DNA of 64,000 nucleotides from Myxococcota bacterium (GTDB lineage: Bacteria; Myxococcota; UBA727; JAHDBA01): positions 4,994-68,993 of the forward strand of contig JAHDBA010000013.1 of assembly GCA_020630615.1 (NCBI GenBank), given 5' to 3'. Each line of letters starts with the position of its first letter. The stretch's first letter is position 1. Made by a program: the position numbers and the translations under genes. Shown here piece after piece: positions 40,340-54,078 of the stretch. Under the pieces are notes generated by a model. It made no database searches, had not been told where the DNA came from, and worked only from the letters and a program-made list of their open reading frames with translations.

Positions 40340-42121
40340 ATGCGAATCAAAGAACTCTCAAAGCCAGATTTGAACTCGTTAATCAACGCCGATGCAACTG
40401 CCTTTGCTCAGGTATGGCCAGAACTTTCGGCAAAGAATAGGGTTACAGCTCTCATTGAACGAAAGGATACCCGCGAAGTACTAAAAGCGATTGCACCGCA
40501 AGATATTTTTCTAACCCTTCGTGAAGTTGGAGCGAGCGATTGCCTCGAGATTCTTGAGCTACTTCCGCAAGAAAGTGTTCAGGCAATTTTCGATATGGAT
40601 GGTTGGAAGAACCATCGAGTTGATGCTGCTGCGATCGGAGACTGGGTAGAGCTCCTCTTTGCTGCCAACCCTGATGTTGCCGTTTCAAGAATTCATCAAC
40701 TTGATATTGAGTCGGTTTCCTTGCTTTTAAAAATTCACTGCCAGGTTTTTGATATCGATTTGGATGAAGGTCAAATTCCCAGTGTCCCCAACCTTCACAT
40801 CATCTCGCCCGATCAACGGCTGATCGTAATTTTCAAGGAACATCCCTACACAGAAAAGCTGTGTCGGGGTCTCAAGGCTTATCTCGAAGGAATTTTTGCC
40901 CGTGACATGCAATATGCCCTGCGTCTTATCGAGGCGATTCGTTGGGAGCTCCCTTCCCAACTGGAAGAAGAAGCCCTGCGCTTTCGAAATGCTCGAATGT
41001 GTGACCTCGGCTTTCCGGATCCATCTGAAGCGTGGGAGGTCTTTGCCTTCCGTGATCCCGATGCCGCACTGACAACGCAACGTGAGAGTGACAATGCTTC
41101 GCAAGAAGGCTTAGTCCTACGAGCAAACACACCACTCTTTTTGTCTGTGGACAGCACTCCAGGGGCCACATTCTTCACAGAAGTGTTCTCACAATTAGAA
41201 CCTCAACACCAAGACTCTGTCGCACGCGAAGTGGTAGCACTCACAAATCGTTTGCTCTTGGCATGGCACGATGATTTGGGAGAAAATGAAAACCTCAAAG
41301 TGCGTCTTCAAGAATGTGTCAGTTTAATTGGTATTGGGCTTCGATACCGGAGTCAAGACAATCCAAGCGAGGCCATTGCACTCTTAGAGCAGCATCATGC
41401 GAAGGAAATCTTTCATGTCGGTTACGGTCTCTTCTTGCGCGTTGTAAGGCGCTTCAACTCGACACTACGTAAAGCAGAGAATGGCTTTGATGCTTTGGGG
41501 TTGAGTTTGCTCGACTCACCCTTGAAAGAGTGTGTTGAGGGATTACGACAGGGCTTCCCGCTGATTTTTCGGGGGCTTTTTGATGCATCTCAAGTCCACT
41601 TCACGACACCGCAGGGCTTACAGGACATCGCATTGTTGGCGCGAACGCTCACAGAAATTACACTTCGCCGGTGGTGGATATCGACTTTGCTCTCACCCGA
41701 TCTTCATGAGACGCTTGAAGGTCTCGCCGTAAAAGACCGTCCGAAGGACAGTCAATTGATGATGAATCATTTCATTACGAAAATGAATCTTGGGGTCAAC
41801 ACGCGTGGCGCTCTCGACTTACAAACTCCCGAGACAAAGAAAGCCTTGCATCTTTTTGCATCGATGAATGAAGACGAATGGAATAAAAAGATCGCTGATA
41901 TTTTTGGCGACCTCGAGAACGATGTTGAAAATGCAATCCCGACAGCGACAATCGAGCTCTCACCCCAAGAGCTACGCAAACGCGTCTTTGCCTATACGAA
42001 GCGCGTTCTAGACCACGCTCGAGACCAAATATTAAAAGAAGACCCCGCTTTTATCGAATGGGACAAGAATGCCCTTTTTTGGACTGGAAACAATGAAAGC
42101 AAAGCAACTCGTGGAGATTAA
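40340..42121 (+). CDS. conserved hypothetical protein with an MgtE-N-like N-terminal helical segment
   Basis: 593-aa ORF. The N-terminus (LLPQESVQAIFDMDGWKNHRVD) resembles the MgtE intracellular N domain pattern. No catalytic motifs. Confidence 0.55.
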   Translation: MRIKELSKPDLNSLINADATAFAQVWPELSAKNRVTALIERKDTREVLKAIAPQDIFLTLREVGASDCLEILELLPQESVQAIFDMDGWKNHRVDAAAIGDWVELLFAANPDVAVSRIHQLDIESVSLLLKIHCQVFDIDLDEGQIPSVPNLHIISPDQRLIVIFKEHPYTEKLCRGLKAYLEGIFARDMQYALRLIEAIRWELPSQLEEEALRFRNARMCDLGFPDPSEAWEVFAFRDPDAALTTQRESDNASQEGLVLRANTPLFLSVDSTPGATFFTEVFSQLEPQHQDSVAREVVALTNRLLLAWHDDLGENENLKVRLQECVSLIGIGLRYRSQDNPSEAIALLEQHHAKEIFHVGYGLFLRVVRRFNSTLRKAENGFDALGLSLLDSPLKECVEGLRQGFPLIFRGLFDASQVHFTTPQGLQDIALLARTLTEITLRRWWISTLLSPDLHETLEGLAVKDRPKDSQLMMNHFITKMNLGVNTRGALDLQTPETKKALHLFASMNEDEWNKKIADIFGDLENDVENAIPTATIELSPQELRKRVFAYTKRVLDHARDQILKEDPAFIEWDKNALFWTGNNESKATRGD

Positions 42122-43148: not shown

Positions 43149-44054
43149 ATGAAGCCAAGCAGCAATGCTGTCACAACAATCGATCTTAACGTTGGGCCTG
43201 GTCTCAGCGTTTCTTTTTTTGGTTCGAGTTTTGATTGGGCAACTATCGATACGCTCTTCTTGCATGGTTATCTCGATTGCGCGGGAAGCTTTGAAGATCT
43301 CATCGACAGGGCGAACTTTAGAGAGCGTGCGCTCGCTTTAGATTGGAGGGGGCACGGAGAGAGTCAGTGGGTTGGCCCAGGTGGAAGCTACCATTTGCTC
43401 GATCATTTGAAAGATTTAAGCGGCACCTTGGAGTACCTACAGACACAAGGCTGCACCATACGAAATGTTGTTGCCCACTCCATGGGTGGCAATGTTGCAC
43501 TTCTTTTTGCGGGTCTACGTTCGTCGAAGCTGCGCCATCTGATTCTCTTGGATATTCTGGGACCGCCATCAGAAGATTCGCTTGCCCAAATTAAGCGTCT
43601 TCAGGATTTACTCGATTCTCACACAAAGCCTAAGCGTTGGATTTCAGTACGAGACAGAGAAGCTCTTATTGAACGACTATGTCAACATAACCCAAAGCTT
43701 TCAAAGGCGGGTGCCTGTCGGATGGCTCGCTACGCTCTCAAACCCATCGAGGAAAAAGGGGAATCACGTTTTAACTTTAAAATGGATCCACGCTTACGAG
43801 GCCCCACCCCAATGCGCTACCCGGAGCCTTTTTATGAAGCCTTGTTCACGAATATTGAGGCTCGAATTTTCTTCGTAGGTGCTGAACATGGGTACATTCC
43901 CAGTGCCTTCGTAAAAAAAAGAGCGAAATACTTTCGCTCGTTTCAGGAGTCATGGATTAACGCTACCGGTCATCATGTACACGTTGATGCTCACGAAGAA
44001 CTTGGAGAGCTTCTCCAAAGTTTTCTTAGTGGGTCTTTCGACGACAACGGATGA
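43149..44054 (+). CDS. alpha/beta-fold hydrolase
   Basis: LFLHGYLDCAGSF (oxyanion region), nucleophile elbow VVAHSMGGNVA, and a C-terminal His (GHHVHVDAHEE). 9 nt after the LolA-like gene. Confidence 0.8.
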   Translation: MKPSSNAVTTIDLNVGPGLSVSFFGSSFDWATIDTLFLHGYLDCAGSFEDLIDRANFRERALALDWRGHGESQWVGPGGSYHLLDHLKDLSGTLEYLQTQGCTIRNVVAHSMGGNVALLFAGLRSSKLRHLILLDILGPPSEDSLAQIKRLQDLLDSHTKPKRWISVRDREALIERLCQHNPKLSKAGACRMARYALKPIEEKGESRFNFKMDPRLRGPTPMRYPEPFYEALFTNIEARIFFVGAEHGYIPSAFVKKRAKYFRSFQESWINATGHHVHVDAHEELGELLQSFLSGSFDDNG

Positions 44055-45483
44055 ATGCAAGAAGGCTGATGAGGCTAAACATCAAAGGTTGCCCACCACC
44101 GCTTTGTGAACATGAGAATAGACCTGAGCCTGTTAGCGCAATCGCTTCGTTGCTTTTCTGAGCGACTCGGTTCGCACTTGGTGGGCCTTGTGACCCCTGT
44201 GGGTCACTCGAACAACCGGGGAGAGAAGTGATGGGGTCACAGAAGTCATTCGGGTCACTGCCGTTTGTAGCTTCATCGCTGTCTGAGATTCCATCACCGT
44301 CGCTATCGGTGGGCGCACACCCTGGAAGAGTATCGATCGGGTCACAAAAGTCATTGGGGTCGGAACCAAGGGCAACTTCATCATCATCACTGATTCCGTC
44401 GCCATCGGAGTCCGTCAATGTACAACCCGGCAACGTCGTAATCGGGTCACAAAAATCGTTTGGATCCGACCCTAAGGCTGCCTCATCATCGTCGCTGATA
44501 CCATCACCGTCCGAGTCAATGCTCGCACAACCAGGCAAAGTTGTGATTGGGTCACAGAAGTCGTTCGGATCACTCCCATTTGCAAGTTCATCGCAATCCG
44601 TCACGCCATCACCATCGGTGTCAAGAACGGGGTTGATGCCAAGCGGGCAGTTGCCTTCTGGTGCACAGTCGCCGTTGCTATTTAATGCTGCAAGGTTCGA
44701 ATCGGTCGGTGCGCAATCATCCACATCGCACACACCGTCGTTATCTTGGTCACTACACGCTTCGAGTGCACAGTCACCTGCGCTGTTGAGGACACTGAGA
44801 TTTGGGTTTTGAAAGGCACAATCATCTTCATCACATACCCCATCTAAATCACAGTCACTGCAAGGTTCTGGAGCACATTCTCCTAAGCTATTGCGTACTC
44901 CTCGAGTTGGATCGTTGGGTGCGCAGTCATAGGGCTCGCAAATCAAGTCTCCATCTGTGTCAGAGCATGGTTCTTCGGCACACAAACCTAGAGAGTTTAG
45001 CTCCCATACCCTTGGGTTGTAAGGCGCGCAGTCGTCAAAATCGCAACGTGGGTCACCATCTTGATTGCTACAGTCCCCCACAGCACAAACACCTTGAGCA
45101 TTCAACGTTTGCAAACTTGGGTCATAATCCGCACAATCTTGAGCGTTCACAACGCCGTCATTGTCTGCATCACATGTTGGAGCCCATCTTTTTGGCGAGC
45201 ACGGATCAAGTACATCAGAACCGTTTGTATTTTCAACCAAATCACAAATGCCGTCACCGTCGGTATCGTCACAGAGATTCAGACCGAGATTGCAAATCCC
45301 AGAGTCGTCTTCCAACCAAATCGCCGGATCGGTCGGCGCACAATCGACATCGTTTAACACTCCATCATCGTCCAGATCTTGCGGCGTCGCACTTACCTTT
45401 GTGCACATCGTCGCAAGCAGTGCTCCTGTAAAAAATATAGTCGACCATCTCTTAGTGTATCGTGAAAACATAAACTCCCCCAT
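44026..45483 (-). CDS. secreted repeat protein with thrombospondin-type-3-like Ca-binding repeats and a C-terminal Cys-containing sorting tag
   Basis: Signal MFSRYTKRWSTIFFTGALLATMCTKVSA. N-terminal ~37-aa repeats DCAP.DP....LNS.G.CA.E.CSD.D.DG.CD.D. C-terminal 35-aa repeats GSDPNDFCDPITTLPGC...DSDGDGISDDDEAAL. The tail is GSGLFSCSQSGGGQPLMFSLISLLAFIRCRRKTH. Confidence 0.78.
   Translation of the reverse strand: MGEFMFSRYTKRWSTIFFTGALLATMCTKVSATPQDLDDDGVLNDVDCAPTDPAIWLEDDSGICNLGLNLCDDTDGDGICDLVENTNGSDVLDPCSPKRWAPTCDADNDGVVNAQDCADYDPSLQTLNAQGVCAVGDCSNQDGDPRCDFDDCAPYNPRVWELNSLGLCAEEPCSDTDGDLICEPYDCAPNDPTRGVRNSLGECAPEPCSDCDLDGVCDEDDCAFQNPNLSVLNSAGDCALEACSDQDNDGVCDVDDCAPTDSNLAALNSNGDCAPEGNCPLGINPVLDTDGDGVTDCDELANGSDPNDFCDPITTLPGCASIDSDGDGISDDDEAALGSDPNDFCDPITTLPGCTLTDSDGDGISDDDEVALGSDPNDFCDPIDTLPGCAPTDSDGDGISDSDEATNGSDPNDFCDPITSLPGCSSDPQGSQGPPSANRVAQKSNEAIALTGSGLFSCSQSGGGQPLMFSLISLLAFIRCRRKTH
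44215..44600 (-). repeat. ~3.7 tandem copies of a 105-nt (35-aa) coding repeat
   Basis: gggtcaca(r)aa(r)tc(r)tt core recurs at 44234, 44339, 44444 and 44549 (exact 105-nt spacing). Confidence 0.9.
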
Positions 45484-45561: not shown

Positions 45562-48228
45562 TTATTGGACATCGCGAACAATAGCCCTGAAATCAGGCTC
45601 TATGGATTCATCAACACTCATGCAATCCGTGATCTCCCCTAACCCAGGAATACGCTCGAAAACCAACGCAGCAACATCTGCGGCGGTCATCCACGATTCT
45701 TCCCCTAGGGCGATATCGATCGGGTCGATCACATTCATATAGCACGGATTCGGATCCATGTGCGTAAACAAGCCCTCATCTCGCCACCAATAAAAAAGAG
45801 AACGTGCACTCCACAAATACGTAAAGGGATACGCAGTCGGATTCTCTCGCCAAGCCGCAATTCGCTCAGCGTCGACACGATAATTTGCCTCGCGCCGCGC
45901 AGATACATCCAAGCCTCTATCCAGAACAGCCTGAGCACGCCCTAACAAATTCTCATTCAGTTGAAAGAGAGGGTCGCTGCGATACTCATAAAGAAGACGC
46001 ACTTGCTCTGCCCTTAAAGCCGTTATTTCAATCGCATCTCGAAATTCCTCAAGCACCCCAATCCAGCCTGCCCCAACTTCCGCTGAATGTGTCAAAGACG
46101 CCAAAACATTTTCGAGATTGGTATGCGCTTGAACAAAGCGATTTTCAGATTCAATCAAGAGTGGTCGTACACGATTCGGGTATACATCGTAGCGCGCACG
46201 CGGTTCTAGAAGTTCAAAAGGACTTAGCCGTGTTGGCTGTGTTGCTTTGAGTGGAATGCCAGGAATCGACTCTGCCAATTCAGAGATGGCATCCCATGTT
46301 TCCGTTCCTTGCAAATAGGCTTGTGCATTCTTTTCAACAACATCCCAGTTATCGCTACCCCCCACTTGCCCATGAATGAGAAGTTCATGTTGCGCATCCG
46401 CCAAATCGATAATCCAATCTGCAACAGTCGCTCCTTCAGGGAAGGGTTCAAAAAGATAGGTTACCAAGTCTCGAAAGTCTTCACGTTCCGGTTTGTCTTG
46501 CGAAGGGGCCCATGCAGCTCGGCTGCTAATGACTTCGTTAAACCAATACCCCCATTCCCAACCTGTCGTGAATAAACTTTGTCCTGTGATTTGGGTCCCT
46601 GCATGTTCACCTTCACCTATCAAGCCTGCATCTTCGTCTTCGACAATCAGTCGGATGTCATGAAAACGCCGCTCTGCATAAACGGGTAAGAAGAGCGGAA
46701 CATCAACATCAAAACTCACCCAATACGCTGCCTCCGGCCCAAAATGAACTCGACGCTTTCCTGCTTCCTCACGCATAAAATCTCGCATGTGTTGAAAACT
46801 ATCATTGCCATAGGTGGGCGCGGGGTCGTCGAGTGCATAATGTTGAACCGTGTGCGCCGATGTTCGTATGTTTTCATTGCTAAAGCGAGTAATGAAATTA
46901 AAATTGATACCCTCAGCGCCCTCCACACCCTCAACATTCTCAAGCTCTTGCTCAGCGGTAATATGTGCGGTCGATGAAAGCTCAGCGCCAAACTCTTCTT
47001 CAATAATATCGTACAGTGCATTGAGCCAATCGATTGTTGGGCCTGGGTCAGTTGCAGTAAACTCGCTTGTGCCCAGCGAGACGCCTGCAAGATCGAAGCC
47101 CGCACTCATCGCAAGACGTGTCCGAGTACGAAGCTGCTCAAGCTGGGTGTCCAGTGGAGCATTCTCGTCATCAATTAAACGCCATGCACGCTGCTGTTTT
47201 TGCACCAGGGGCAAACCACAACTCACACGGATCCCAAAAGAATGCGCAATTTCAACAATCTCCGCCAAACGCCCAAAGCGTTCTTCACTGTAATCAAAAT
47301 CGTGTTCGCCGGTTCGCTGCAAACTCCAGCCCACTTGGTTTGCACCGTTGGCAAGGAGCCAACCCAAGTAGGTTTCCCATTCTGGTAAAAGCTCTCGCCA
47401 CCCCGCTTCATTGTTGCGACTTCGTTGATCCAAGCCTTGAAGCATGTCTGTAAATTCTAAAGGATGCTTTGTATGAATGCTTACATGCCGATAGGGCCAG
47501 CGTGGACTTGTTTCAATTGCATCAACAGCTGTCCAGTCAATCGCGTGCTCCATACGGATCGCTTCGAGAGGATGAAAGAAGCGATAACCGAGTTTTTCAA
47601 GCAAACGAAATGCACCAAAGCCAAGCCCAATGTTATGGTAAGGTCTTGGGTCGTCCTTGGGCTTGCCTTCCACAAGAATATTCACGACACCATCATCGTT
47701 GAGTTCACGCGCAATTCGAAAACCTTCAGAGTGAAGCAATGTTTCATGTTCTGTAGCATCACGAAATACAATTCGCGCTCGATGAACACCATCGACATGC
47801 TCCAAGCTGAATTCCCTTTCTTCCTCAAGCGAGCGAAATACTCGAACGCGTTCACCCGCATTCTCCAAATAAGATAAAAAGGAGTTGAGTGCAGCTGGAG
47901 GTAAATCGCCAAGCACCACAACGAAGACACTCGAGTCGGCATGCTGCTCGCTATCGGTCTCGCTTAAATCCAAGATATCCGAATCATTCTGACCCCCCTC
48001 TGCGTCACGCGTCGTATTATTGTCTACCGAGTTCTCGCCGCTTGACTCAAGGGGTGGCGCATCCCCCTCGATTTGCTCGTCCCTGTCCGGAGTCTGCCCG
48101 GGCACGGATTGACCTAGAGGGTCATTTACAGTGTTCTCGGGGAAGTCGGCCCCAGAGTCGACGAACTCCTCACACGCTAAAACCAATAGACAAGCGCAAA
48201 CCCAAAAAAGAGCATTCAATTTTTTCAT
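45562..48228 (-). CDS. large secreted lipoprotein, unknown family (possible glycoside-hydrolase-like TIM-barrel protein); paralog A
   Basis: 888 aa. Lipoprotein signal MKKLNALFWVCACLLVLAC and an acidic linker. FGAFRLLEKLGYRFFHPLE and W..LLPEWETYLGWLLANGANQ recall the N-terminal/TIM-barrel junction of GH20b/GH67N/NAGLU-like enzymes. The functional call is weak. Confidence 0.8.
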   Translation of the reverse strand: MKKLNALFWVCACLLVLACEEFVDSGADFPENTVNDPLGQSVPGQTPDRDEQIEGDAPPLESSGENSVDNNTTRDAEGGQNDSDILDLSETDSEQHADSSVFVVVLGDLPPAALNSFLSYLENAGERVRVFRSLEEEREFSLEHVDGVHRARIVFRDATEHETLLHSEGFRIARELNDDGVVNILVEGKPKDDPRPYHNIGLGFGAFRLLEKLGYRFFHPLEAIRMEHAIDWTAVDAIETSPRWPYRHVSIHTKHPLEFTDMLQGLDQRSRNNEAGWRELLPEWETYLGWLLANGANQVGWSLQRTGEHDFDYSEERFGRLAEIVEIAHSFGIRVSCGLPLVQKQQRAWRLIDDENAPLDTQLEQLRTRTRLAMSAGFDLAGVSLGTSEFTATDPGPTIDWLNALYDIIEEEFGAELSSTAHITAEQELENVEGVEGAEGINFNFITRFSNENIRTSAHTVQHYALDDPAPTYGNDSFQHMRDFMREEAGKRRVHFGPEAAYWVSFDVDVPLFLPVYAERRFHDIRLIVEDEDAGLIGEGEHAGTQITGQSLFTTGWEWGYWFNEVISSRAAWAPSQDKPEREDFRDLVTYLFEPFPEGATVADWIIDLADAQHELLIHGQVGGSDNWDVVEKNAQAYLQGTETWDAISELAESIPGIPLKATQPTRLSPFELLEPRARYDVYPNRVRPLLIESENRFVQAHTNLENVLASLTHSAEVGAGWIGVLEEFRDAIEITALRAEQVRLLYEYRSDPLFQLNENLLGRAQAVLDRGLDVSARREANYRVDAERIAAWRENPTAYPFTYLWSARSLFYWWRDEGLFTHMDPNPCYMNVIDPIDIALGEESWMTAADVAALVFERIPGLGEITDCMSVDESIEPDFRAIVRDVQ

Positions 48229-48260
48229 TTGGCAAAGCTAGAGCAACAGCATGCAGCCGA

Positions 48261-48288
48261 TCAACTTTAACTTTGACGCAAGTGCGCC
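48261..48288 (-). promoter_or_regulatory. conserved upstream element of paralog A
   Basis: The plus-strand tcaactttaactttgacgcaagtgcgcc starts 33 nt from the start codon. A near-identical copy sits at the same distance from paralog B. Confidence 0.5.
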
Positions 48289-48327
48289 ATCCCACCTCAT
48301 CGCACCTGAAGATTCCCTTCTCACTCT

Positions 48328-50967
48328 CTATTCATCTCCTCGAACTAGCGTACGGAAGTTTGGTTCCGTGGACTCATCAACATCAATACAACCACTAATT
48401 TCGCCCAGCCCTGGAATACGATCGAAAACTAAAGCTGCAGCGTCTGCCGCGGTCATCCACATGTCTTCCCCAAGAGCGATATCGACGGGGTCGATGACGT
48501 TGAGATAGCATGGGTTGGGTGACATGTGAGTGAACAAGCCTTCATCGCGCCACCAATAAAAAAGCGAACGTGCGCTCCATAGGTATGTGTATGGATAAGC
48601 CGTCGGGTTAAAGCGCCAGGCCGCGATGCGTTCTGCATCAACCCGATAACTTTGTTCGCGACGCGCGGAAACATTGAGCCCCTCGTCTAAAATACTTTGA
48701 GCTTCACGAAGTAAACTTGCGTCCGCCTGAAATAAGGGGTCCGCACGATATTCATACAAGGCAAGGACTTGACGTGACCGCAAAGAGGTAATCTCAATTG
48801 CGTCGCGAAACTCATTAAGTATTTTTATCCAACCTGCGGAGGCTGAAGCGTCTTCACTGTCCAAGACCTCCGCCCGAAGCGATTCGATGTTATCCAACGA
48901 TTGACGAAAGCGATTCCGCGAACTTTCTAAAAGAGGACGTATACGATTGGGATAGGTGTTAAAGCGGACACGTGGATCGAGGAGCTCAAGTGGCCCGATA
49001 CGAGTTGGCTGCGTGGATTTCAGTGGAACTCCTGGAATCTGCTCCGCGAGTTCCGAAATATCATCCCATGTTTCCGTGCCCTGAAGGTAAGCCTGAGCAT
49101 TTTTCTCAACGACATCCCAATTGTCCACCCCATCAATCTGACCGTGAATTAAGAGTTCGTGTTGTGCAGCCGCCAAATCGATGATCCACTCTGCAATCGC
49201 ATCTCCCTCGGGAAAGGGCTCAAAAATAGAGTTAAGGAGTGCACGAAATGCCTCTGCTTCGTCCCCTTCGACTGTTGGCGACCACGCTGCCCTTGCTGCA
49301 ACGATCTCATTGAACCAATACCCCCACTCCCATCCGGTCGTAAACAAACTTTGTCCCGTAATGCGCGTACCGGCGTATTCCCCCTGACCCATAAGCCCCG
49401 CCTCTTCATCTTCGACAATGAGTCTTAAATCATGAAAGCGTCGTTCTGCGTAGAGCGGTAAGAAGAGGGGTACATCAACATCAAAGCTAACCCAATAAGC
49501 GCTTTCAGGACTGTAGTGCACCAAACGTCTTCCGGCTTCATCGCGCATAAACTGACGCATATGTTCAAAACTCTCGTTGCCATAGGTTGGTGCCGGATCG
49601 TCAAGAGAGTAATGCTGAACGGTATGCGCGGAAGCCCGAATATTACCTTCTGTAAAACGCGTGATGAAATTGAAGTTTTCGCCATTGAGCGCATCCTCCC
49701 CTTCACCCACATCCACTTCTTGCTCCGCTGTAATGTGCGCTGTTGACGACATTTCAGCCCCAAACTCAACCTCAATGACTTCAAGCATTCGGTTGAGCCA
49801 AGCAATCGTACGCTCAGGGTCGGTCGCGGTAAATTCCGTTGTTCCAAGCGCAACCCCAGCAATATCGAATCCGGCGCCCATGGCCAAACGCGCTCGCTCC
49901 GTCAGTTGTTCCATCTGTTCATCGAGGGGAGCATTCACATCATCGATCAAATGCCAGGCATGTTGTTGTTTTTGAACCAGTGGCAAGCCACACCCAACCC
50001 GGATCCCATAACTATGTGCAATGTCCACCAGGACACGCATACGATCGAATCGCTCGTCGCTGTAATCAAAATCATCGTGCCCCGTTCTCAAGGTCACCCA
50101 ACCCGTTTGATTTTGACCGTTCGCAAGCAGCCAATCCATATACTGATGCCACTCCGGCAGAAGTGCCTCCCAACCTTCTCGCTGTGTTTCACTTTGCGAA
50201 TTCAAACCTTGAAGCATATCTGTAAACTCCAGCGGGTGCATGGTGTGAACGCTCACGTGACGAAATGGCCAACGCGGGCTCGTTTCGATTTCTTGAATCC
50301 CTGACCAGTCGATAGGTTTATTCATACGAAGTGGCTCGAGTGGGTGAAGGAAGCGATATCCAACGTTTTCTAAAAGTCGATAAGCGCCAAAGGCAAGTCC
50401 GATATTATGATAGGGTCGTGGATCAATCTTTGCTTTACCTTCAACAATAATATTCTGGACTCCTAGAGCGCCAGCTTCGCTTGTGACCCGGTAACCTTCG
50501 GATGTGAGGCCTTCGTCGTCGTTGCTCGCATCACGAAAAACAATTGTCGCACGCAGTGTCTCTACAGCGTTGTCTTCGCGAAAGAATTCTTCCATTTGGA
50601 TTTCACTCTCGAAGATACGAACAACTTCCCCGGTTTTTTCCAAATACGCTACAAAGTGGGCCATGACCCCTGGGGGGAGATCCCCAAGTTTAACAATCGA
50701 AACAGTGACGTCGCCTTGAGTGTTCGCGTTATCGCTCGAGGCTCCGGTCGTACTCTCGTCTGAATTGCCTGCACCGTCAGCCGTGGTGCTGCTTGTATCA
50801 CTATTTGGATTGTCGTTACCCACCGATGCATCACCATTCGAATCCTCTTCCTCGAACGGCTCGACGTCAGTCTCTCCACTCAATTGGCCGTCGACTTTAG
50901 GGTTTTCTTCACATCCAACTAAAAATGAAAGCGATACAACAAGCGAAAATATAGACGCAAACTTCAT
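48328..50967 (-). CDS. large secreted lipoprotein, unknown family; paralog B of 45562..48228
   Basis: 879 aa from ATG 50967 (MKFASIFSLVVSLSFLVGC). Colinear with paralog A, about 70% identical in one 63-residue block counted by eye (ETSPRWP.RHVS.HT.HPLEFTDMLQGL...). The listed start 51003 would overlap the conserved upstream element. Confidence 0.8.
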   Translation of the reverse strand: MKFASIFSLVVSLSFLVGCEENPKVDGQLSGETDVEPFEEEDSNGDASVGNDNPNSDTSSTTADGAGNSDESTTGASSDNANTQGDVTVSIVKLGDLPPGVMAHFVAYLEKTGEVVRIFESEIQMEEFFREDNAVETLRATIVFRDASNDDEGLTSEGYRVTSEAGALGVQNIIVEGKAKIDPRPYHNIGLAFGAYRLLENVGYRFLHPLEPLRMNKPIDWSGIQEIETSPRWPFRHVSVHTMHPLEFTDMLQGLNSQSETQREGWEALLPEWHQYMDWLLANGQNQTGWVTLRTGHDDFDYSDERFDRMRVLVDIAHSYGIRVGCGLPLVQKQQHAWHLIDDVNAPLDEQMEQLTERARLAMGAGFDIAGVALGTTEFTATDPERTIAWLNRMLEVIEVEFGAEMSSTAHITAEQEVDVGEGEDALNGENFNFITRFTEGNIRASAHTVQHYSLDDPAPTYGNESFEHMRQFMRDEAGRRLVHYSPESAYWVSFDVDVPLFLPLYAERRFHDLRLIVEDEEAGLMGQGEYAGTRITGQSLFTTGWEWGYWFNEIVAARAAWSPTVEGDEAEAFRALLNSIFEPFPEGDAIAEWIIDLAAAQHELLIHGQIDGVDNWDVVEKNAQAYLQGTETWDDISELAEQIPGVPLKSTQPTRIGPLELLDPRVRFNTYPNRIRPLLESSRNRFRQSLDNIESLRAEVLDSEDASASAGWIKILNEFRDAIEITSLRSRQVLALYEYRADPLFQADASLLREAQSILDEGLNVSARREQSYRVDAERIAAWRFNPTAYPYTYLWSARSLFYWWRDEGLFTHMSPNPCYLNVIDPVDIALGEDMWMTAADAAALVFDRIPGLGEISGCIDVDESTEPNFRTLVRGDE

Positions 50968-50999
50968 GAACGGACGGTAAAGCAAAAGCAGTGTCTGCT

Positions 51000-51026
51000 T
51001 CAACTTTAACTATGACGCAGGCGCAC
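51000..51026 (-). promoter_or_regulatory. conserved upstream element of paralog B
   Basis: The plus-strand tcaactttaactatgacgcaggcgcac starts 33 nt from ATG 50967. Compare 48261..48288. Confidence 0.5.
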
Positions 51027-51089
51027 TGTCTTACTCTTGCCTACACGATACCCTCAGTACCCCTTTGTCGTTTTTTGCATCGTAACATT

Positions 51090-51341
51090 ATGAAGGTTGC
51101 AAACGAAAACGACATTATTCGAATGGCGTGGGACGATGATATTTCTTTCGATGCCATCAAGAGAAAATATGGCGTAACAGAATCGGGTGTTATTCGATTA
51201 ATGCGTACACGTCTAAAACGCTCAAGTTTTCGACTTTGGCGGAGACGCGTTTCGGGTCGAAGAGCGAAGCACGAGGCCAGGCTACGAGACTCAAGGTCAA
51301 CCCATAAAGGTCGCCTTCGGGAAACACTTGCAAAGCTATAG
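51090..51341 (+). CDS. small basic protein of the DUF2805 / TIGR03643-like family
   Basis: Starts at ATG 51090. IIRMAWDDDISFDAIKRKYGVTESGVIRLMRTRLKRSSFRLWRRRVSGRRAKH matches the family core as I recall it. Confidence 0.65.
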   Translation: MKVANENDIIRMAWDDDISFDAIKRKYGVTESGVIRLMRTRLKRSSFRLWRRRVSGRRAKHEARLRDSRSTHKGRLRETLAKL

Positions 51342-53031: not shown

Positions 53032-54033
53032 TCAGGGTGTCGCACCTGCCACGGCGTCATCAATGCAATTTTGATCGAACATGATCCTATTACCATTTGC
53101 TATTTGAGTCGAAGCAAAGTTAGCGAGCTCGACAGTCCCTTCATTGGCCCAATACATAACGCAATCGTTATTGTCGCAATGGCGGCCATTTTCCTCATCT
53201 TGATGGGCGCTAACTAATGGAAATCCGTTGTTAACAAGGCCCGCCGCATGGCCAATTTCGTGAACCAGCACAGCTTGCTCCGAAAACTTGCGGACATCAC
53301 TAAGGAGCGACATTGACTCGATTACAGGTTTGAACATAGCGATGACACCTGTATCGCCAATCGAAACACCGATAACACCTCGGGCTTCCTCCCCGTTGTG
53401 ACGTTCAAAGTAACCATCGAGATACACAATATAGTAACTTATAACGTCGCTTGAGGTTTGTGCGACTTGTCGACTTTGCTCTGCAATCGTTAGAATCTCG
53501 GCACTATTAAATGGGCCTGTAACCGATATCGCTATATTGTCCATCTCATCAAGATTCTTTGGGATCGTGTAGTCTCGTTCCTCACTAAGAATCCCTTTCA
53601 TATTTTCTTCAAGCAATGACCACAAATCTCCTCCAGCAATCGGGGAGATTCCTACGTAGGGTTCCGCACCATTGACGTAATCAACTTCAACAATCACTGG
53701 CCGAAGTGCTGCACCATCGCCACCATTACCCTCCGATCCAGCATTCGTATTTGTCGGCTCACTCGTCGATGAGGAATCGTCAAGAATGTCGTCCGGTGGT
53801 TGTAGGTTACCGTCGCCCACGTCACCTGAGGCACTCGGGTCACTTGGCTCAATATCTGAACCCGAACCTGACCCATCAGCCGAATCGGAATCCGATACAT
53901 CACTAGCATCGGATCCGTCGCTGGTTTGCGTTTGCTCATCTTCGTTCGCACCAGTGTCAGTGCTCGAACAGGCTGAATAAGAAATCAATGTTAGCGCTGA
54001 AATAACGAGAAGCGTAGTCTGCAAACTTTTCAT
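53032..54033 (-). CDS. lipoprotein zinc metalloprotease (HExxH)
   Basis: Start at ATG 54033 (MKSLQTTLLVISALTLISYSAC lipobox) or TTG 54069. An acidic S/D/G linker follows. VLVHEIGHAAGLVNNG ... HCDNNDCVMYW resembles a Bacteroidota/Myxococcota membrane metalloprotease family. Confidence 0.65.
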   Translation of the reverse strand: MKSLQTTLLVISALTLISYSACSSTDTGANEDEQTQTSDGSDASDVSDSDSADGSGSGSDIEPSDPSASGDVGDGNLQPPDDILDDSSSTSEPTNTNAGSEGNGGDGAALRPVIVEVDYVNGAEPYVGISPIAGGDLWSLLEENMKGILSEERDYTIPKNLDEMDNIAISVTGPFNSAEILTIAEQSRQVAQTSSDVISYYIVYLDGYFERHNGEEARGVIGVSIGDTGVIAMFKPVIESMSLLSDVRKFSEQAVLVHEIGHAAGLVNNGFPLVSAHQDEENGRHCDNNDCVMYWANEGTVELANFASTQIANGNRIMFDQNCIDDAVAGATP

Positions 54034-54078
54034 TATTCTAAAGTTGTATACTGTCAAGAGTTCTGTCAAACTTATCGA

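Follow-up and report, generated by a model that had tools for sequence, protein, structure and literature searches.

In a 64,000-nucleotide stretch of the Myxococcota bacterium contig JAHDBA010000013.1 (positions 4,994 to 68,993 of the forward strand; this whole stretch is hereafter the window), we found a tandem pair of genes, paralog A and paralog B, that encode lipoprotein-like members of a large family lacking annotation. Our best reading is that these are glycoside hydrolases (GHs) tethered at the cell surface, of a family that is unclassified as judged by Pfam, NCBIfam and PDB searches. We put at roughly 0.6 the probability that A and B are glycoside hydrolases using Glu389 and Glu499 (numbering of A). 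Both open reading frames are intact and adjacent on the minus strand:

45562..48228, minus strand: paralog A, 888 amino acids with an ATG start, stop codon included (open reading frame list, AlphaFold2, Foldseek)
48328..50967, minus strand: paralog B, 879 amino acids from the ATG at 50967 (open reading frame list and BLASTP against A)

The two proteins are colinear from end to end in a BLASTP alignment (564/891 identities, 63%; 76% positives; E = 0). The original prediction, made from the letters of the DNA, had described a tandem same-strand pair colinear over its full length, and all the motif blocks that it quoted are present in this alignment. It had also described a lipobox and a divergent, acidic low-complexity linker in each protein, and these are found as well. 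The N termini are of the lipoprotein type, reading MKKLNALFWVCACLLVLAC followed by EE in A and MKFASIFSLVVSLSFLVGC followed by EE in B, and each combines the positive N terminus, hydrophobic stretch and lipobox ([LVI][ASTVI][GAS]C) by which bacterial lipoproteins are recognised (MKK..LVLAC19 in A, MK..FLVGC19 in B). The segments concerned are the following:

48172..48228, minus strand: signal peptide and lipobox of A (residues 1-19, LVLAC), from the sequence
50911..50967, minus strand: signal peptide and lipobox of B (residues 1-19, FLVGC), from the sequence
47935..48171, minus strand: acidic disordered linker of A (residues 20-98), Asp+Glu 29%, pI 4.05
50692..50910, minus strand: acidic disordered linker of B (residues 20-92), Asp+Glu 25%, Ser/Thr/Asn/Gly 48%

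A Cys-containing lipobox was detected by regular expression in at least 58 of 116 family members, a count that is a minimum because some members are truncated or have non-standard starts. The linkers of A and B, 70-80 residues long with 25-29% Asp+Glu, 1-3% Lys+Arg and a pI of about 4.05, are only about 30% identical to each other, and residues 20-84 of A have a predicted local distance difference test score (pLDDT) below 50 in the AlphaFold2 model and are thus predicted to be disordered. Furthermore, a Cys829/Cys869 pair is kept in 93-94 of the 116 members, which fits an oxidising compartment. Collectively, the lipoboxes, the Cys pair and the acidic linkers indicate that A and B are predicted to be exported, lipid-anchored proteins on a flexible tether.

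Neither protein has a Pfam or NCBIfam match at E <= 1. A phmmer search of PDB sequences gave no meaningful match, only antibody Fab chains at E 0.38 or weaker, and a profile built from the 116 sequences retrieved no chain beyond noise at E <= 10 from all PDB sequences. A confident match to a characterised family was looked for and none was found, in agreement with the original prediction, which could not assign a family. The family nevertheless turned out to be large. A word-indexed search returned 137 homologues, all named hypothetical and none with a precomputed Pfam domain, and an exhaustive profile search returned 1,748 cluster representatives (clusters at 50% identity) at E <= 1e-3, of which 688 reached E <= 1e-30. 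Members of a divergent subgroup (for example Minicystis rosea A7982_07709) are about 700 amino acids long and 24-30% identical to A; this subgroup is itself large, with 293 matches, all hypothetical.

According to genome loci, the bacterial members belong mainly to Myxococcota (Nannocystaceae, Polyangiaceae, Labilithrix, Sorangium and, by source names, Minicystis) and Planctomycetota (including Ca. Uabimicrobium), with further members in Ketobacteraceae, Bdellovibrionota, Oligoflexus, Bradymonadaceae, Sericytochromatia and Binataceae. Eukaryotic members occur in the chytrids Polychytrium, Podochytrium, Siphonaria and Physocladia, the jakobid Andalucia godoyi and the dinoflagellate Gymnodinium smaydae; the Andalucia godoyi protein is annotated by similarity to an Acanthamoeba protein, and Acanthamoeba is a member by annotation only. 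The homologues considered here were P0109, P0118, P0130, P0133, P0165, P0183, P0212 and P0217, of which P0183 is an unidentified metagenome protein. Two members of about 1,070 amino acids, P0165 (the dinoflagellate protein) and P0183, carry a pair of EF-hands inserted after the barrel described below, and in the long or fused homologues Pfam gave only EF-hands and one weak leucine-rich repeat, with no carbohydrate-binding module. In a crude neighbour-joining tree, the proteins from chytrids are nested within bacterial groups, which makes a transfer between domains possible.

The predicted fold is of a glycoside-hydrolase type. The 116-sequence alignment was used to model A with AlphaFold2; the model reached a mean pLDDT of 88.2 and a predicted template-modelling score (pTM) of 0.87, and contains three domains: an alpha/beta N-domain (about residues 100-240), a (beta/alpha)8 or TIM barrel, and a helical C-domain (about residues 580-888). 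The eight barrel strands comprise residues 246-251, 298-302, 334-338, 380-383, 416-421, 455-459, 494-497 and 549-554. On the DNA, the domains are located as follows:

47509..47934, minus strand: N-terminal alpha/beta domain of A (about residues 99-240), GH67N/GH20b-like, from the secondary structure of the model and PF03648 matches
46489..47508, minus strand: (beta/alpha)8 barrel of A (about residues 241-580), from the strands of the model and conserved columns
45565..46488, minus strand: C-terminal helical domain of A (residues 581-888) with Arg739, Tyr800, Arg816 and Cys829/Cys869, from the helices of the model and conservation
49261..50280, minus strand: (beta/alpha)8 barrel of B (about residues 230-569), from the alignment with A

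Using Foldseek against the PDB, the full model of A matched the GH138 enzyme BT0997 (6hze; E 8.5e-17, TM-score 0.44-0.55 over about 820 aligned columns), many entries of GH84 (E about 1e-13), GH67 (1h41, chain 1h41_B; E 8.7e-13, TM-score 0.44/0.54) and GH20 (6ezt; E 3.8e-8). The barrel was also modelled alone to test whether the flanking domains drive these matches. This barrel-only model (pLDDT 92.5, pTM 0.92) retrieved GH84, GH67 and GH20 as the sole families among the 50 matches listed, and its best TM-score normalised by the query (TMq) was 0.54-0.55, for the GH67 structures 1gql and 1k9d.

The sequences of more distant members point in the same direction. When 56 diverse members were scanned singly with Pfam, the GH67N domain (PF03648) was matched in 6/56, at best with E 4.2e-4 and 21.0 bits against a cut-off of 24.3 bits; the matches map to residues 110-209 of A, and A and B themselves have none. 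DUF4838 (PF16126) was matched in 2/56 at 15.9-16.9 bits against a gathering score of 26.6 bits, over strand 8 and helix 8 (the "GWEWGYW" region), and a precomputed PF16126 match is present in at least three subgroup proteins among 120 listed. Besides these two domains, nothing recurs in the scan of the 56 members. The junction between the N-domain and the TIM barrel had been likened to GH20b, GH67N and NAGLU-type hydrolases; the AlphaFold2 architecture and the Foldseek matches to GH138, GH84, GH67 and GH20 agree with this, and the sub-threshold PF03648 matches in the six divergent members end inside the "(F)GA(F/Y)RLLE" motif, one of the two segments on which that likeness had been based.

The pattern of conservation points to a maintained catalytic pocket. 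Combining the alignment with the model, we found that each barrel strand is followed, past its C-terminal end, by residues that are invariant or nearly so:

Strand 1: His252, Thr253, His255, Pro256, Glu258
Strand 2: Trp301
Strand 3: Gln345, Gln346
Strand 4: Gly386, Glu389, Phe390
Strand 5: His422
Strand 6: His459, Asp468, Tyr473
Strand 7: Glu499, Tyr502, Trp503, Asp507
Strand 8: Gly556, Glu558, Tyr561, Trp562

Conserved residues of the C-domain are Arg739, Tyr800, Arg816 and Asp817. Residues whose conservation extends to the divergent subgroup and to the 56-member alignment (at least 90%) are Arg247, His252, His255, Glu389, His422, His459, Tyr473, Arg492, Glu499, Tyr502, Trp503, Asp507, Arg521, Arg739, Tyr800 and Arg816. 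Family-wide, conserved residues stand at or after 7/8 strand ends, strand 3 being the one without. Gln345 is specific to the main clade; Gln346 lies above 90%. His329 is conserved only within an 18-sequence alignment. A and B keep all family-invariant residues, and in B the conserved His correspond to His241, His244, His411 and His448. The conserved acidic residues in a TIM barrel that the original prediction had proposed to look for are present, in the form of Glu389 after strand 4 and Glu499 after strand 7, 110 residues apart; their codons were verified in both genes:

47062-47064, minus strand: candidate catalytic Glu389 of A
46732-46734, minus strand: candidate catalytic Glu499 of A
49834-49836, minus strand: Glu378 of B, equivalent to Glu389
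49504-49506, minus strand: Glu488 of B, equivalent to Glu499

Strand 4 is followed by the residues G-T-S-E389-F in A and G-T-T-E378-F in B, and the family consensus is GTSEF. This loop contains no adjacent Asp-Glu or Asp-Asp pair, and the H-x-G-G motif of GH20 is absent too; the missing pair argues against the substrate-assisted machinery of GH20 and GH84.

From the fold and these positions we infer hydrolase activity and the roles of individual residues. In the proposed mechanism, a glycosidic bond would be hydrolysed at the C-terminal face of the barrel with Glu389, in the loop after strand 4, as the general acid; the catalytic acid of GH20, GH84 and GH67 enzymes sits in this same loop. Glu499, just after strand 7, would be either the nucleophile of a retaining reaction, as in GH89 and GH138, or the general base of an inverting one, as in GH67, in which case Asp468 or Asp507 might assist it. 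GH89 and GH138 enzymes employ two Glu and are retaining, and GH67 enzymes combine an acid Glu with an Asp/Glu base pair and are inverting. By analogy with these families, a Glu after strand 4 together with a Glu after strand 7 would constitute a two-carboxylate glycosidase arrangement, and both catalytic residues are probably Glu, a pairing like that of GH67, GH89 or GH138.

Among characterised systems, the GH67 alpha-glucuronidases (Cellvibrio GlcA67A, 1gql/1h41; Geobacillus AguA, 1k9d) have the same three-domain order as A. They give the best barrel TMq (0.54-0.55) and share the best full-model TMq (0.44) with GH138, they have a single Glu after strand 4, and their N-domain is the one that recurs below threshold in our family. 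The spacing of Glu389, Asp468 and Glu499 (79 and 31 residues) also resembles that of the presumed GH67 acid and base residues, E292, D365 and E393. GH67 enzymes are, however, only 11-15% identical to A, the catalytic and C-terminal GH67 domains of Pfam are not matched at E <= 1 in any of the 56 members, and the family profile does not find GH67 in the PDB. Unlike GH67, the family has a four-His cluster and a lipid anchor with an acidic tether, and Asp468 is not conserved in the divergent subgroup.

The GH138 alpha-galacturonidase BT0997 (6hze/6hzf/6hzg), which gave the best full-model Foldseek E value, is likewise a TIM-barrel enzyme acting on an acidic sugar, and it is retaining with two catalytic Glu. 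It is 10-12% identical to A, and neither phmmer nor the profile matched 6hze or 6hzf at E <= 10, so the sequence similarity by which CAZy families are defined was not found. BT0997 is encoded in a rhamnogalacturonan-II utilisation locus, whereas the family of A and B has no conserved neighbourhood. The family appears to be new at the level of sequence, while its structural and mechanistic class is well known.

Several observations weigh against reading A and B as glycoside hydrolases. The fold matches have TM-scores of only 0.44-0.55 and identities of 8-15% (10-13% for the top GH138 and GH67 matches), values so low that the catalytic machinery cannot be transferred by homology, and the equivalence of Glu389 and Glu499 with known catalytic residues is one of strand position only. 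Asp468 and Glu558 are invariant in the main clade and not family-wide, and the four pocket His that are conserved family-wide are unusual for these GH families and could mean a different chemistry. Furthermore, A and B are not accompanied by carbohydrate-binding modules, sugar transporters or further carbohydrate-active enzymes, open reading frame calling and clustering across 80 homologous loci revealed no conserved neighbour, and neither protein names nor the literature (homologue locus tags, papers on new families) yielded a characterised member.

Other explanations were considered. The family could consist of substrate-assisted beta-N-acetylhexosaminidases of the GH20, GH84, GH163 or GH185 type, in which the acetamido group would be the nucleophile and Glu389 the acid/base. 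GH84 and GH20 share the plan of N-domain, barrel and helical bundle, and both are among the top Foldseek matches of the full model as well as of the barrel alone. DUF4838, weakly matched in two members, corresponds to GH163 (endo-hexosaminidase BT1035) and GH185 (6-sulfo-GlcNAcase Sp_0475). These remote relatives of GH20 form a distant offshoot of the same superfold, the recognition of which is itself recent (PMC10570127). Moreover, GH185 works with one Asp plus Gln, His and Tyr instead of the classical Asp-Glu pair (PMC10570127), and conserved His, Tyr and Gln exist in our family too. Still, GH84 and GH20 enzymes have an adjacent Asp-Asp or Asp-Glu after strand 4 that the G-T-S/T-E-F loop of A and B lacks, and the GH20 motif H-x-G-G is absent; no GH84 or GH20 Pfam domain is matched, and the DUF4838 scores (16-17 bits) stay below the 26.6-bit cut-off, with no match in A, B or the main clade. 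TMq is highest for uronidases, namely GH67 for the barrel and GH138 and GH67 for the full length, and the second family-wide Glu, after strand 7, fits a two-carboxylate mechanism instead. We therefore regard a hexosaminidase of this type as improbable. We give a similarly low likelihood to a GH-type scaffold with non-glycosidic chemistry, where a His/Glu/Asp metal site or a His catalyst would cleave an ester, phosphodiester, sulfate ester or amide in a glycan or in some part of the envelope. Family-wide conservation extends to His252 and His255 (both following strand 1), His422, His459, Glu389 and Glu499/Asp507, and the strand pattern of these residues resembles that of the metal ligands in amidohydrolase-type barrels. 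An amidohydrolase-like metal enzyme was considered as the primary reading and set aside: the barrel retrieves glycosidases (GH84, GH67 and GH20 only, among the 50 matches listed), and H-x-H is not strict, A having S-I-H with Ser first at the end of strand 1. To our knowledge, all characterised proteins of this three-domain architecture are glycosidases.

That A and B have no enzymatic role at all, and are surface lipoproteins that bind glycans in a lectin- or receptor-like manner or are structural, seems highly unlikely to us. No activity is known, no metabolic gene context is evident and the long linker would suit a surface tether, but conserved charged residues, two Glu included, are retained after 7/8 strands across bacteria and eukaryotes at 24-40% identity, as expected of a maintained catalytic site, and the nonsynonymous divergence (dN) of the barrel is low. 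There is also a small chance that the family is a glycoside hydrolase family already numbered in CAZy and without a Pfam model, an NCBIfam model or a solved structure, as CAZy creates families faster than Pfam and NCBIfam follow. Against this, the 116-member profile retrieves nothing but noise from the PDB at E <= 10, every source name is "hypothetical protein", and the search of locus tags and new-family literature yields nothing. On balance, the original idea of a duplicated, possibly new carbohydrate-active family is supported by the fold, the conserved residues and the missing curated match; the "cell-envelope-degrading" part of it is only one of several possibilities.

For a glycoside hydrolase with such a pocket, the ring of conserved His (252, 255, 422, 459), Arg (247, 492, 521, 739, 816) and aromatic residues, together with the fact that the best structural relatives, GH67 and GH138, are uronidases, suggests an anionic substrate, which would be a uronic acid or else a sugar that carries sulfate or phosphate; our confidence in the details is low. 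We infer that the target would be an extracellular glycan, for example an algal or microbial surface polysaccharide. The carriers include bacteria with large genomes that are often predatory (Myxococcota, Bdellovibrionota, Oligoflexus, Bradymonadaceae, Ca. Uabimicrobium) or phagotrophic or osmotrophic eukaryotes (the jakobid, the dinoflagellate, the chytrids and, by annotation only, Acanthamoeba). We tentatively raise the doubtful but conceivable further possibility that the specificity lies outside all current CAZy families and that predatory-type bacteria and protists use these enzymes to strip an acidic sugar from surface glycans of prey or algae.

We also examined the history of the pair. 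A and B are mutually closest, with 65% identity over aligned columns, and are sisters in the neighbour-joining tree; the next relative is P0003, from a Myxococcota metagenome-assembled genome (MAG), at 49-50% identity. By the Nei-Gojobori method, dN between A and B is 0.30 overall and the synonymous divergence (dS) is saturated; dN is 0.21 in the barrel, 0.23 in the C-domain, 0.40 in the N-domain and about 1.1 in the linker. Judged from these comparisons, the duplication is old and lineage-specific. With dN low in the barrel and C-domain and dS saturated, the folded domains of both copies are under purifying selection. In the clade of A, B and P0003 (partly also P0107, P0008 and P0015), several charged barrel residues with a conservation of at least 93% in other members have been replaced: Asp338 by Gly, Glu384 by Ser/Ala, Lys420 by Thr/Ser and Asp434 by Gly. 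Asp273 is replaced by Asn/Gln in A and B only. As Glu384 and Lys420 are kept or lost jointly in a few sequences of the divergent subgroup (by eye), their joint change may reflect the loss of a salt bridge, or a lost or altered subsite, and with it possibly a change of specificity.

The upstream regions of the two genes share a short conserved element:

48261..48280, minus strand: element conserved ahead of A, TGCGTCAAAGTTAAAGTTGA, ending 32 nt from the ATG
51000..51019, minus strand: element conserved ahead of B, TGCGTCATAGTTAAAGTTGA, ending 32 nt from the ATG

The two 20-nt copies (consensus TGCGTCA(A/T)AGTTAAAGTTGA) are 19/20 identical and both end exactly 32 nt before the ATG, the A copy lying in the 99-nt spacer ahead of A. 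The window contains two matches, with 0 expected by chance. Third codon positions of A and B are only 38% identical, and since the genes are so diverged at these positions, the conservation of the element points to a function: it is probably a shared promoter or operator sequence, which suggests that each paralog may have its own, similarly regulated promoter or operator. The element was not found upstream of the closest orthologue, nor in any of 82 loci fetched, and a scan of the locus for sigma-70 sites and terminators gave no more sites than shuffled sequence. A sigma-54 reading was rejected by eye, as the GG/GC spacing misfits in A and the GG is lacking in B. No Shine-Dalgarno sequence is evident ahead of either ATG.

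The element also bears on the start of B, whose reading frame can be extended to a TTG at 51003 (48328..51003, 891 amino acids). We rejected this start, given that the stretch matching the extension upstream of A contains an in-frame TAG and yet shares the non-coding element. Because of this TAG, the stretch of A between the element and its ATG is not coding, and because this equivalent stretch is non-coding but bears the element, the ATG at 50967 is favoured. Divergent from B lies a small DUF2805/TIGR03643 gene (50991-51341, plus strand) whose listed GTG start overlaps the B element; its Pfam domain starts at residue 42, so the true start is probably an internal ATG near 51090.

The neighbourhood of A and B is housekeeping or unrelated. 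Its genes encode a LolA-like protein, an alpha/beta hydrolase, a protein with TSP3 repeats, the DUF2805 protein and a DEAD-box helicase; iPGM, UDG, acyltransferases, PhoH and acyl-CoA carboxylase subunits are also encoded in the window. Across the 80 homologous loci, clustering brought up nothing but Ser/Thr kinases, a class that these genomes hold in abundance in any case, and antisense reading frame artefacts, and two individual homologous loci showed no shared context. As the neighbourhood is unrelated and neighbours are not conserved, the context gives no hint of the substrate.

Three other genes of the window were noted. The TSP3 gene (44026-45483, minus strand) encodes a protein of 485 amino acids that is rich in Asp and contains five bacterial TSP3 repeats (Pfam E 6e-22). 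Its C-terminal tail, ...CSQSGGGQPLMFSLISLLAFIRCRRKTH, resembles a MYXO-CTERM-type sorting signal, but NCBIfam gave no match, and long antisense reading frames across this gene are probably artefacts. A 345-amino-acid putative lipoprotein (53032-54069, minus strand) with an acidic Ser/Asp-rich linker and a HEIGH motif has a weak archaemetzincin-like NCBIfam match (E 7e-5, far below the cut-off) and no Pfam match; it may represent an unclassified zinc metalloprotease that, like A and B, combines a lipobox with an acidic tether. A 593-amino-acid protein (40340-42121, plus strand) is a full-length match to DUF6178 (E 2e-79), a conserved protein of unknown function.

The window sequence is present in three sequencing runs of one "algae metagenome" sample; no RNA-seq runs covering the genes were found. 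The beta subunit of the acyl-CoA carboxylase is 75-78% identical to proteins from Myxococcota and "Deltaproteobacteria" MAGs, and together with the algae-metagenome runs this indicates that the host is an uncultured, Myxococcota-like bacterium associated with algae. The housekeeping proteins of the window are at most 78% identical to known proteins from such MAGs, the GC content of about 48% is low for Myxococcota, and the host probably represents a poorly sampled lineage.

If the proposed activity is true, A and B would belong to a new CAZy family of more than 1,700 sequence clusters that is invisible to Pfam and NCBIfam and thus to most genome annotation. New GH families are described regularly, and the size of this one, its distribution over bacteria and protists and its unusual His-rich pocket make it worth targeting. 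The His- and Arg-rich pocket and the uronidase relatives direct attention to acidic glycans, such as algal polysaccharides and the sugars of bacterial envelopes and capsules, where new enzymes are sought. The tandem pair provides a natural experiment, in which the replaced charged barrel residues of its clade may show how specificity shifts within the family. A glycosidase role would also fill a sizeable blank in the genomes of Myxococcota, Planctomycetota and several protist lineages.

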